Assembly (NCBI GenBank): GCA_049700835.1
Contig: JBNAUL010000002.1
Coordinates: 153,967-217,966, forward strand
DNA length: 64,000 nt
From: Candidatus Woesearchaeota archaeon
GTDB lineage: Archaea > Nanobdellota > Nanobdellia > Woesearchaeales > WAPY01
Reading direction: 5' to 3'
This document shows positions 16,419 through 58,801 of the stretch, in pieces. The stretch's first letter is position 1. Each line of letters starts with the position of its first letter. Both the position numbers and the translations under genes were made by a program. A model generated the notes under the pieces. It was not told the DNA's origin. It made no database searches and saw only the letters and a program-made list of their open reading frames with translations.

Positions 16419-16521
16419 TGGGCCCGCGGAGATTTGAACTCCGGACCGCTCGATAACCAAAATTTTTAAAATTTTTATGATTTATCAGTCGAGTGCTCCA
16501 ACCAGTCTAAGCTACGGGCCC
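16419..16521 (-). tRNA. tRNA-Ile(GAU) with 28-nt canonical 37/38 intron (16455-16482)
   Basis: Cloverleaf GGGCCCG/CGGGCCC, anticodon stem CTCGA/TCGAG, T loop TTCAAAT; relaxed BHB (CUGA/UUGG); no encoded CCA. Confidence 0.93.
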
Positions 16522-16529
16522 TAAAAAAG

Positions 16530-16602
16530 CGCCCCCGGCCAGATTTGAACTGGCGACCTCGCGGTTAACAGCCGCGCGCTCCAACCACTAAGCTACAGGG
16601 GC
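16530..16602 (-). tRNA. tRNA-Asn(GUU), intronless
   Basis: 73-nt cloverleaf, CGCGG-CT-GTT-AA-CCGCG. Confidence 0.96.
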
Positions 16603-16827
16603 TTACAAAAAACTAAAATTCTAAAATAGTGTTTAAGATTTCATTTATAAAGATTACTAAAATTAATTGAAATTGTTTTAAAAAGATTTTGTTTGTAAGA
16701 TTCCTAAAATTATAAGATTGTTCTATCTAAAAAGCAGATACGCATAAAATTTTTTATAATTTTATTTAGTGCGTCTCCTGAAATAACAAAAAATATTTAA
16801 AATATATAAGCATAAAAATTTTTAGAA

Positions 16828-17216
16828 ATGAGAATAATATTAAATTAAAAAGTTAAAAAAAATGCGCTTATGATTTAAAATACAATCATAAAGTACAAGG
16901 TTTTATATATAATTTATTAAGAGGAACTCATTATTATAAACTTCATGATATTTCAAGTTATAAATTTATTTAATTTTTCAAACATTATTCCACCCTTTGA
17001 TTTTAAAACCAATGATGAAAGAACATTGATTATTTCTTCCCCTGATCACAATATAATTAAGTTATTATCGCAACAGCTAGAAGAAAAAGAAAAAGCTGAA
17101 ATAGGAAAAATGCTTTTTAAAATCTAAGACTTCTAAATTACACAACCAATTATAAAAAGAGATTGTTCATTAATCACAGAACTCCAATTATAATAAGAAT
17201 TCCAAAAGAAAAATTT
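16828..17216 (+). pseudogene. cas6: Truncated, decayed cas6 (N-terminal half)
   Basis: Across frameshifts and stops: MRIIL..CAYDLKYNHKVQGFIYNLLRGTHYYKLHD..FNFSNIIPPFDFKTNDERTLIISSPD..IGKMLFKI..LIT(G)TPIIIRIPKEKF, matching the archaeal Cas6 N-terminal pattern. The C-terminal Gly-rich loop is absent. Confidence 0.82.
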
Positions 17217-56997: not shown

Positions 56998-57120
56998 TTG
57001 TTTTACCTATGTATGGTCTCATTAACATCAACCTTAACCTCCATTATAATATTCTTATAATGAAGGCAAACTCTTTTCAAATTCATTTATGAAAAGGATT
57101 TAACCTTAAATAATTTTAAA

Positions 57121-57234
57121 TGGACCTGTCGGGAATTTCAATGATTTTAGCATTTAAAAAATGCTAAAAGCTTGTTTGAACCCGAGGCCCCCGCCTTGCA
57201 AGGGCGATGCTCTACCAGGCTGAGCTACAGGCCC
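57121..57234 (-). tRNA. tRNA-Ala(UGC) in the rRNA spacer with 40-nt T-loop 59/60 intron (57135-57174)
   Basis: G3-U70 acceptor; anticodon TGC; BHB central helix TTCA/TGAA with bulges AAC, ATT; splicing gives TTCAAAT. Confidence 0.93.
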
Positions 57235-57290
57235 ATAAACGAATATGAAATAGAAGTGAGTAAAAAGGTTTTAAAATTTTAAAAATAAAA

Positions 57291-58801
57291 AGGAGGTGAT
57301 CCAGCCGCAGGTTCCCCTACGGCTACCTTGTGGCGACTTAACCCTTCTCACAAAGCCCAGATTCGAAATACCCTTTTTAAGAGTAACCCTCGTCTAGACT
57401 CTGCTCGAATGGTTTGACGGGCGGTGAGTGCAAGGAGCAGGGACATATTCATCAGATTATGCTAAAACCTGATTACTAGGGATTCCAACTTCATGAGGTT
57501 GGGTTACAAACCTCAATCTGTACTAAGATAGGGTTTTGAGGATTAGCTTCCCCTTTCGGGGTTGCAGCCCATTGTCCCTACCATTGTTGCGCGCGTGTAG
57601 CCCAGGGCATTCGGGGCATACTGACCTACCGTAGCCTGCACCTTCCTCTCCGTTTCCGGAGCAGTTCCTATAATGTGCCCGCTCAACATGCGTTGGCAAT
57701 TATAGGTACAGGTCTCGCTCGTTGCCTGACTTAACAGGACATCTCACGACACGAGCTGACGACGGCCATGCACCACCTCTTAGCCTGTCAGGTAAGCCCT
57801 TCAGACTGACCTTCATCCTGCTGTCGGTCCTGGTGAGATTCCCGGTGTTGAGTTCAATTGAACCGCACGCCGCACCCCTTGTAGTGCTCCCCCGCCTATT
57901 CCTTTAAGTTTCAGCCTTGCGACCGTACTCCCCAAGCGGCGAGTTTAACATCTTCATTACGACACTGCGCATTCCCGAAGAATACGCAACACCTAACTCG
58001 CAGAGTTTACTGCTAGGACTACCCGGGTATCTAATCCGGTTCGCTCCCCTAGCTTTCGTCCCTCACCGTCAGACCTGTTCTAGTAAGACGCCTTCGCCAC
58101 TGGTGGTCCTTCTGGGATTATAGCATTTTACCGCTCCCCCAGAAATACCTCTTACTCCTCCCAGTCTCTAGTCTTGCAGTGTCTCATGCACACCATTAGG
58201 TTAGGCCTAATGATTTCACAGGAGATTTACAAGACCGGCTACGGACGCTTTAGGCTCAATAATCGTGATCACCACTTGTGGCGCCGGTGTTACCGCGGCG
58301 GCTGGCACTGGTCTTGCCCACCACTTATTCGCTAAGATTTTTACTCTTAGCAAAAGCCTTCTCTTTGAGAAGGCACTTGGGGTTGCCTTGTCACGCTTTC
58401 GCGCATTGCAAAGGTTTCGTGCCTGCTGCACTCCGTAGAGCTAGGGCCAGTGTCTCAGTGCCCTTCTCGGGGCGCCCTCTTCCAAGGCCCCTACCGATCT
58501 TTGGTTTGGTGGTCTTATAAAGCGCTAAGCCTTTTAATTGACAAAAGCTTTTGCGCTACGTTACACCACCAACAGCCTAATCGGCCGCCGGCTCATCCTT
58601 AGGCGCTAACGCTTTAAGAAAGAAATCATTCCAGAAATTCTTTCCTATCAGGTATTATCCTCAGTTTCCCGAGGTTATCCCTGACCTAAGGGTAGATTAC
58701 CGACGTGTTACTGAGCAGTTCGCCAGCTCTTTGCAGAGCTTGGACTTGCATGGCTAATCCCAACCCCAATAGCGGCAATCTCCCGCAGGATCAACGGGTA
58801 T
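57291..58801 (-). rRNA. rrs: 16S rRNA (ends approximate), intron-containing
   Basis: 5' CCCGTTGATCCTGCGGGAG, GTGCCAGCCGCCGCGGTAA, intact anti-SD ATCACCTCCT; flanking inverted repeat 57252-57269 / 58868-58885. Confidence 0.97.
58515..58558 (-). other. 44-nt BHB intron in 16S rRNA helix 11 (about E. coli 265/266)
   Basis: Exon stem GGUGGU/ACCACC, central helix GUAA/UUAU, bulges CGU and AAG, outer stem AGCGC/GCGCU; removal restores GGUGGUGUAACGGACCACC. Confidence 0.85.

Follow-up and report, generated by a model that had tools for sequence, protein, structure and literature searches.

Bulge-helix-bulge mini-introns in tRNA and 16S rRNA genes of a Woesearchaeota-like archaeon look inherited in place rather than mobile

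Introduction

A 64,000-nucleotide stretch of DNA from a Candidatus Woesearchaeota archaeon (contig JBNAUL010000002.1, hereafter the window) carries seven tiny introns in six transfer RNA (tRNA) and ribosomal RNA (rRNA) genes, three of which share the motif AAGCTTTT. Are these introns one mobile family that moves between tRNA and rRNA genes, as an earlier interpretation made from the letters alone (the sequence-only reading) had proposed, or are they long-standing residents that resemble each other by chance? We compared the introns with each other, with the whole genome, and with their counterparts in relatives. The introns appear to have descended at their sites, now and then lost or gained, and not to have hopped from gene to gene. 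We consider it likely that they are ordinary archaeal bulge-helix-bulge (BHB) mini-introns, vertically inherited with drifting hairpins, and that the shared motif is coincidental.

Results

Seven introns interrupt six RNA genes of the window

Rfam searches of the window returned the 23S and 16S rRNA genes and four tRNA matches, and ARAGORN at default settings returned tRNA-Asn only. We added a scan for a T arm with a matching 7-base-pair (bp) acceptor stem that allows for an insertion in the T loop. The genes and introns are listed below (lengths in nucleotides, nt); the labels 37/38, 59/60, 19/20 and h11 were assigned by eye, not taken from a tool.

16419-16521, minus strand: tRNA-Ile(GAU) gene (Rfam tRNA, 53.6 bits, 29-nt anticodon-loop insert)
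16455-16482, minus strand: 28-nt intron of tRNA-Ile(GAU), after position 37
16529-16602, minus strand: tRNA-Asn(GUU) gene, uninterrupted (ARAGORN; Rfam match at 16530-16602, 68.5 bits, no insert)
31460-31588, minus strand: tRNA-Tyr(GUA) gene (Rfam, 52.4 bits, 59-nt anticodon-loop insert; ARAGORN intron option i(36,56))
31496-31551, minus strand: 56-nt intron of tRNA-Tyr(GUA), after position 37
31891-31984, plus strand: tRNA-Asp(GUC) gene (T-arm and acceptor scan; Infernal 5' part only, 21.2 bits)
31950-31971, plus strand: 22-nt T-loop intron of tRNA-Asp, site 59/60
31998-32110, plus strand: tRNA-Lys(UUU) gene (T-arm and acceptor scan; missed by Infernal and ARAGORN)
32018-32041, plus strand: 24-nt D-loop intron of tRNA-Lys, site 19/20
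32082-32097, plus strand: 16-nt T-loop intron of tRNA-Lys, site 59/60
54090-57009, minus strand: 23S rRNA gene, uninterrupted (Rfam, 2630 bits, model positions 1-2987 on 2920 nt)
57122-57234, minus strand: tRNA-Ala(UGC) gene in the 16S-23S spacer (scan; Rfam covers 57177-57234 only)
57135-57174, minus strand: 40-nt T-loop intron of tRNA-Ala, site 59/60
57291-58801, minus strand: 16S rRNA gene (Rfam, 1448.9 bits)
58515-58558, minus strand: 44-nt 16S intron in a hairpin loop at about model position 246 (h11 in the sequence-only reading)

We scanned the junctions for the strict BHB geometry, defined as a 4-bp central helix with all four pairs, 3-nt bulges, and a cut after the second bulge base. 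Six of the seven window junctions had it. The central helices were CUGA/UUGG in tRNA-Ile (4/4, outer helix 5), UUCG/CGGA in tRNA-Asp (4/4, flanking helices h 5 and h' 2), GCCU/GGGC in the tRNA-Lys D loop (4/4, h' being the 7-bp helix AGCUUUU/AAAAGCU), UUCG/UGAA in the tRNA-Lys T loop (h 5, h' 2), and UUCA/UGAA in tRNA-Ala (4/4, h 5). The 16S intron, which the Rfam alignment renders as a 45-nt insert opposite one model position of the hairpin loop, has a strict hBHBh' motif (h 8, GUAA/UUAU 4/4, h' 5). The exception is tRNA-Tyr: the scan found no strict BHB at its junction, three of four central pairs form when read from the sequence, and in the minimum free energy (MFE) fold the inner ACAGCUGG pairs with the anticodon stem-loop. 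When the inserts were cut at their junctions, the window tRNAs became cloverleaf sequences of 72-75 nt (75 nt for tRNA-Ile, and 73 nt for tRNA-Lys(UUU) once both introns were removed). The 16S intron contains no homing endonuclease open reading frame (ORF), LAGLIDADG or other; at 44 nt it is too short for any ORF. Against four order-level relatives, insertions in the 23S gene do not exceed 13 nt. The insert alignments, the scans, and the BHB junctions therefore match the description in the sequence-only reading: seven ORF-less insertions in six RNA genes, with tRNA-Asn and 23S uninterrupted. A strict BHB supports its BHB label at six of the seven junctions, and tRNA-Tyr falls one central pair short.

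The genome carries 20 introns and one alpha-type splicing endonuclease gene

The host genome (G000; 1.07 Mb, 32% G+C, four contigs) is Woesearchaeota-like. We pooled Infernal, ARAGORN, and T-arm/acceptor hits and set the junctions by hand together with the BHB scan. The catalogue holds 20 introns (758 nt): 19 in 16 tRNA genes, plus the 16S intron. Twelve lie at 37/38, six at 59/60 (Asp, Lys-UUU, Ala-UGC, Glu-UUC, Leu-GAG, and Ser-GCU), and one at 19/20. A strict BHB with flanking helices was present at 14 of the 20 junctions; the scan did not find one at the remaining six, all anticodon-loop junctions placed by the tRNA model (Tyr, Trp, Met, Ser-GGA, Cys, and Arg). When seven pre-tRNAs were folded globally by MFE, the junction positions in Tyr, Trp, Met, Cys, and Arg did not come out clearly. 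With the inserts removed, the tRNA sequences measured 72-87 nt.

All six genes with a 59/60 intron were missed or cut by Infernal and ARAGORN. The ARAGORN intron option took Ser-GGA for Phe, Cys for Lys, and Gln for a stop-codon tRNA, and it also called a false tRNA in a protein-like stretch (C2:323492-323659); these calls were discarded. Standard finders miss or cut about one third of the intron-bearing tRNA genes, which bears on estimates of tRNA completeness in DPANN archaea. We also noted a tRNA-Ile with anticodon UAU and a 35-nt intron (G000:C2:43908-44017), present too in the relatives G001, G004, and G005.

A single gene for the splicing endonuclease EndA was found. It encodes 212 amino acids with the Pfam N and C domains PF02778 and PF01974, and among solved structures it comes closest to the N. 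equitans alpha chain 3iey_A (6.7e-40) and to M. jannaschii 1a79 (9.8e-32). Compared with the M. jannaschii alpha4 chain it has no insertion between the catalytic motifs, where the N. equitans chain has 2+4 extra residues. From these comparisons we expect an alpha-type enzyme that forms a homotetramer, and the BHB motifs at non-canonical sites, most of them strict, agree with this. An RtcB gene is also present (570.7 bits).

Intron sequences are not shared across sites

We aligned all 190 pairs of the 20 introns locally and compared the scores with those of shuffles. Outside pairs that share a kink-turn (K-turn)-like element, described below, no cross-site similarity went beyond 9-14 nt. The top cross-site pairs, Met-Cys (ATGAGC..GCTGTGAT) and Trp-Cys (26 columns), both consist of this element, over 20-26 nt. 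The tRNA-Lys D-loop and tRNA-Ala T-loop introns have only the 9-mer AAGCTTTTA in common (p 0.017, not notable among 190 pairs), and the three AAGCTTTT introns have nothing in common past the 9-mer. BLAST with the 20 introns and the tRNA-Thr(GGU) intron of the congener G001 revealed no second intron copy in the genome: the best non-self matches of these 21 introns were AT-rich words of 11-19 nt (E 0.0005-1.9), lying outside other introns. The exact AGCTTTT...AAAAGCT hairpin occurs once in the genome, and a scan of 185,579 species genomes for the exact 24-nt tRNA-Lys D-loop intron gave a single record, at the orthologous Asp-Lys locus.

Intron sites are occupied in relatives while the hairpins drift

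In G001, all ten introns of the nine compared tRNA genes have orthologues at the same site. Exons are 97% identical between the two genomes (643/663) and introns 81% (316/392), with individual introns ranging from 66% to 100%: the tRNA-Ile intron, at the identical site, is 71% alike and the tRNA-Tyr orthologue 79%. The tRNA-Lys D-loop site is occupied in all five genomes of the family that show the gene (G000, G001, G002, G004, and G005), and the same five carry the tRNA-Asp T-loop intron. The Lys D-loop intron keeps its exon-pairing ends constant (A.., ..GGGCAA) but not its hairpin, which reads AAGCTTGAGGAAAGCT in G002 and is built of unrelated arms in G004 and G005. For the spacer tRNA-Ala(UGC), a T-loop insert was present in 14 of the 19 genes recovered from 29 loci of the order.

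The 16S site is occupied in 5 of the 21 loci with both flanks (our genome, G001, G007, G040, and G044) and additionally in G025. The 16S introns of our genome, G040, and G025 align end to end, and the intron is homologous across three families. In this alignment our AAAAGC----TTTTG is a shortened counterpart of AAAAATCAGTTTTTG in G025: the 16S copy of the motif arose by a local deletion. The G001 16S intron contains the same eight letters, but on the 3' arm. Thus, the differing Lys hairpins, the 16S deletion, and the 3'-arm copy in G001 point to the motif as a passing state of hairpins that evolve in place. We also placed the 16S intron on a tree of 21 16S sequences. Only 2 of its 18 inner branches were well supported, and it therefore allows one origin as well as five.

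Further insertions were seen in relatives. A second 16S site, after position 772 of our 16S, holds 93-144 nt in 7 of 21 relatives (L018-L023, L027), and the G025 16S gene (L027) has six insertions. The 23S gene carries 300 nt in G030 (L085:2188-2487) and 91 nt in G014 (L087:2632-2722); our genome is without them. The tRNA-Ala(CGC) gene of G004 (L072:140-327) has a 115-nt T-loop insertion starting with ACAGCTTTTTT, at an isoacceptor that is uninterrupted in our genome.

These results bear directly on mobility. The sequence-only reading suggested that a family of tiny introns may be moving between tRNA and rRNA genes, as put forward for tRNA intron transposition in Thermoproteales. In such a family, one short hairpin intron marked by AAGCUUUU would copy itself from gene to gene, for example through reverse splicing and then reverse transcription with recombination. 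For that order, a review takes similar introns in diverse tRNA species as evidence for transposition (in its passage on the subject, PMC4033280). Similarity of this kind, over most of the intron length and across sites or tRNA species, was not found in any of our 190 pairs. The motif does sit at an equal structural place, the 5' arm of the inner hairpin, in three of the seven window introns; its pooled enrichment is significant; and introns are gained or lost between close relatives, down to an intron-less 16S allele in a DNA-like run (both shown below). But the similarity of the three introns ends at 9 nt and the genome holds no extra copies. Two of the three sites are old, the Lys D loop family-wide and the Ala T loop order-wide; the orthologous Lys D-loop introns of G002, G004, and G005 lack AAGCTTTT; the 16S copy traces to a deletion within an intron homologous across three families; and the sharing is not significant genome-wide without two K-turn introns. 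With no cross-site similarity beyond short stretches, no extra copies, and sites occupied in relatives, the proposal did not hold up, and we regard such a family as very unlikely.

Introns turn over between close relatives, and a near-identical strain probably lacks the 16S intron

Intron content differs even among close relatives. The tRNA-Thr(GGU) gene has a 32-nt anticodon-loop intron in G001 (L033:4292-4395) and none in G000 (C3:99966-100037), G003, or G004. The tRNA-Lys T-loop intron was found within the genus only, in G000 and G001, and introns in tRNA-Asn and in the tRNA-Ser-UGA T loop were found in G003 only. The tRNA-Ser-GGA gene has a T-loop intron in G002 versus an anticodon-loop intron in G000, G004, and G005. 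Thus, intron turnover between close relatives is real, by gain or loss. The gains and losses that the sequence-only reading had suggested mapping exist insofar as the occupied sites differ between congeners; the Lys D-loop and Ala T-loop sites, however, are old and long occupied.

An exact joint of 58514 to 58559, which skips the 44 nt predicted from the BHB, was present in contigs of three public runs: the RNA runs X2 and X6, and X3, which we guess to be a DNA run. The contigs continue beyond the joint for 122 letters in X2 (a 591-nt contig), 20 in X6, and 18 in X3, and a neighbouring 19.6-kb contig of X3 starts 12 letters before 58559. All three runs have five variant letters in common, and X2 and X3 share a sixth at 58600; they therefore come from one strain about 99% like the window. 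X3 kept the tRNA-Ala intron, with one change in the loop, and run X1 kept the 16S intron in an unbroken 625-nt contig. We had considered the RNA contigs as proof of splicing. This was rejected: the joined form, with the same variants, also occurs in the DNA-like run, and the RNA contigs are therefore no such proof. The RNA runs gave no coverage of the tRNA genes, the spacer tRNA-Ala included. Instead, there is probably a near-identical (~99%) strain whose DNA precisely lacks the 16S intron.

The motif excess is real but composite

AAGCTTTT has nine matches on the two strands of the window versus 21.5 expected from shuffles, and is thus under-represented there. Three of the matches lie in introns, at 32018 (plus strand, Lys D loop), 57166-57173 (minus strand, Ala T loop), and 58543 (minus strand, 16S), each in the 5' arm of the inner hairpin, confirming what had been noticed from the letters. 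Across the genome, AGCTTTT is the 7-mer common to the largest number of introns: 5 of 20 (Lys D loop, Ala T loop, 16S, Trp, and Cys), versus 0.11 introns expected from genome frequencies or 0.16 from intergenic-like DNA. We used a family-wise test, which takes the minimum Poisson p across all k-mers and compares it with null sets of equal lengths. Sets as extreme as the introns were found as follows.

All 20 introns, k=7, random genome pieces: 1/1000
All 20 introns, k=7, Markov-1 sets: 5/1000
All 20 introns, k=7, GC-matched pieces: 0/1000
All 20 introns, k=7, intergenic pieces: 2/2000
All 20 introns, k=6, intergenic pieces: 18/2000
All 20 introns, k=8, intergenic pieces: 19/2000
18 introns (without Trp and Cys), k=7, intergenic pieces: 625/2000
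18 introns (without Trp and Cys), k=8, intergenic pieces: 183/2000
7 window introns, k=8, intergenic pieces: 0/2000

The pooled AGCTTTT excess is real, but the signal is composite. The Trp and Cys copies sit inside the K-turn-like hairpin, a structure unlike that of the other three, and without these two introns the three-way sharing loses its genome-wide significance. Enrichment over background had been named in the sequence-only reading as a check on mobility; it is obtained for the pooled set and disappears with the Trp and Cys introns. A reading of AAGCTTTTAAAAA as a promoter-like element was set aside; AGCTTTT was seen upstream of 3 of 45 RNA genes (70 nt, by eye): Cys, Gln, and one Met. 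On a separate note, ACGTTTT occurs 14 times on both strands of the genome versus 321-2653 times for other A-NN-TTTT words; this scarcity therefore indicates strong CG avoidance.

Several observations weigh against ordinary introns with a coincidental motif. Over the 20 pooled introns AGCTTTT is enriched about 30-40-fold (family-wise P ~0.001), and in the window-only test the sharing of AAGCTTTT is strong (0/2000), but this is the same sample that suggested the pattern. AGCTTTT recurs near the 5' end of T-loop introns in the tRNA-Ala(UGC) of G040 and the tRNA-Ala(CGC) of G004. Among 47 interrupted tRNA-like genes of relatives it occurs in four versus 0.33-0.46 expected (computed from G000 frequencies), of which one spans an exon-intron junction and two are homologous to introns already counted. 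G000 and G001 agree at 24/24 positions of the Lys D-loop intron, where their other introns are 66-92% alike, which hints at a constraint that drift does not explain. Finally, the intron-skipping 16S contigs may come from a strain without the intron in its DNA.

Could AGCUUUU be a functional RNA element, repeatedly selected in introns? Conceivable roles are a signal for protein binding or for processing, and an inner-helix closing sequence that the endonuclease prefers. In favour of this, the present form of the motif was reached independently: it came about by deletion in the 16S intron; the Cys intron differs from its G001 orthologue by one extra T; and the Lys D-loop hairpin of G002 has AAGCTTGAGG in its place. 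Its return in Ala T-loop introns of two relatives, G040 and G004, would also fit, as would the 24/24 match of the Lys D-loop intron between congeners. However, the contexts differ (the 5' arm of the inner helix, from the second, third, or ninth intron base, or the loop of the K-turn hairpin), 15 of the 20 introns and most orthologues in relatives lack AGCUUUU, and treating the two contexts apart leaves borderline statistics. We consider a functional element unlikely.

A bolder alternative is that mini-introns are still exchanged or copied without a homing endonuclease, and that an AAGCUUUU...AAAAGCUU hairpin cassette spreads or seeds new introns. Such a cassette would spread by reverse splicing or template switching into tRNA and rRNA loops. 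If true, this would account for the motif excess, for the 24/24 identity of the Lys D-loop intron, and for presence and absence of the 16S intron at ~99% identity; we hold it to be quite improbable. The ordinary, vertically inherited mini-introns that we favour leave a remaining puzzle: a modest AGCUUUU excess together with a Lys D-loop intron that is identical in two congeners.

Four introns outside the window resemble box C/D guides

The K-turn-like element occurs in the anticodon-loop introns of tRNA-Trp, tRNA-Met, and tRNA-Cys, and a fourth anticodon-loop intron, that of tRNA-Arg(CCU), has boxes of its own. All four genes lie outside the window.

G000:C1:212641-212753: tRNA-Trp, K-turn-like intron hairpin
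G000:C1:443271-443397: tRNA-Met, K-turn-like intron hairpin
G000:C2:222461-222592: tRNA-Cys, K-turn-like intron hairpin
G000:C3:96408-96550: tRNA-Arg(CCU), 69-nt intron

Box C/D RNAs carry C/C' boxes (RUGAUGA), D/D' boxes (CUGA), a K-turn, and a guide of 10-12 nt, and the methylated base is the one in the fifth pair upstream of D/D'. The Trp, Met, and Cys introns have in common the arrangement xUGA-GC-loop-GC-NNN-GA(U/A), which we read as a K-turn closed by a short hairpin, resembling the internal D'/C' pair of box C/D RNAs. The element recurs in the orthologous introns of 3-4 relatives each (G001-G005), with invariant stem pairs and varying loops (CUUU, GAAA, UUUAAA, UUCG). In MFE hairpins, the anticodon stem-loop pairs with bases that lie upstream of xUGA; by our own reading of the fifth-pair rule the targets are C34 in Trp and Met and C39 in Cys. 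In the Cys intron of G005, guide and target changed together. The boxes deviate from the consensus, and the Rfam search of the window matched no C/D family. The three introns may be half-size box C/D-type methylation guides. In the tRNA-Arg(CCU) intron, 90% identical in G001, a terminal stem, an AUGAGGA box, and two CUGA boxes give the appearance of a full box C/D guide. Of the 12 nt ahead of its last CUGA, 11 are complementary to 23S rRNA (gene positions 1987-1998), the sole hit among 16S, 23S, and 44 tRNA genes. Genes for fibrillarin, Nop5, and L7Ae are present. The Nop5-family match (G000:C1:379022-379630), directly upstream of the fibrillarin gene, has two TAA stops within its open frame.

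Discussion

Ordinary, vertically inherited BHB introns would work as follows. Primary transcripts would fold so that the exon-intron boundaries lie in 3-nt bulges flanking a 4-bp helix; the single alpha-type EndA would cleave at the two bulges and RtcB would ligate the exons, both enzymes being known here as genes. The sites (19/20 in the D loop, 59/60 in the T loop, 37/38 in the anticodon loop, and one 16S hairpin loop) would have long been occupied in the lineage. The introns would descend vertically, their inner hairpins drifting fast by substitutions and indels while the exon-pairing bases stay fixed, and now and then an intron would be precisely lost or gained. AAGCTTTT in three window introns would then be a chance likeness between hairpin arms that are AU-rich around a GC core rather than a sign of common descent, and two of the five AGCTTTT cases in the genome-wide excess would be due to the K-turn-like hairpin of the Trp and Cys introns.

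The finding is a curated case rather than a new mechanism. It shows one alpha-type endonuclease gene coexisting with D-loop and T-loop introns of strict BHB, and old intron sites are compatible with fast turnover of intron sequence. Two side observations are also relevant to archaeal RNA modification and intron loss: the probable absence of the 16S intron from a near-identical strain, and the candidate C/D-type guides within the Trp, Met, Cys, and Arg introns.

How do these introns compare with known ones? For the candidate guides, the closest case is the box C/D guide in the Haloferax tRNA-Trp intron, whose targets are C34 and U39 (as stated in a passage of PMC11408192). The Trp intron here is alike in its xUGA box, short GC stem, GAUGA-like box, and putative guide to C34; unlike a full box C/D guide RNA with four boxes, it is 38 nt long with one box pair.

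For the tRNA introns, passages of Kaneta et al. 2018 (PMC5829648) describe disrupted tRNA genes and alpha4-type enzymes in DPANN lineages, a Woesearchaeota genome included, and, together with passages of Fujishima and Kanai 2014 (PMC4033280), multiple or non-canonical BHB tRNA introns in DPANN archaea and Thermoproteales. The present introns are likewise short and ORF-less, lie at 37/38, 59/60, and in the D loop, number up to two per gene, and go with an archaeal EndA; here too, some genes escape standard finders. We list as differences from the systems in those passages the single alpha-type EndA gene and the non-canonical introns that mostly retain a strict BHB. Like the transposed tRNA introns of Thermoproteales (as portrayed in PMC4033280), the introns here are many per genome, lie at several positions, and turn over between relatives; unlike them, they do not show similar sequences in diverse tRNA species.

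Our search of one literature library found no paper on mini-introns at this 16S site and no census of Woesearchaeota tRNA introns, and the preprint 10.64898/2026.05.13.725050 yielded nothing about introns. BHB introns in rRNA genes of Woesearchaeota-type archaea are already on record (a passage of PMC6125680). Thermoproteales 16S genes contain hairpin BHB introns below 50 nt (described in part of Jay and Inskeep 2015, PMC4496867). The 44-nt intron here is likewise an ORF-less hairpin, has a strict BHB, and is patchily distributed among relatives. It differs in its host lineage, in its site (about model position 246, far from the loci 374 to 1391 given in that part of PMC4496867), and in having no neighbouring homing-endonuclease intron as a possible carrier. 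Taken together, the window introns are further cases of known kinds of BHB intron.

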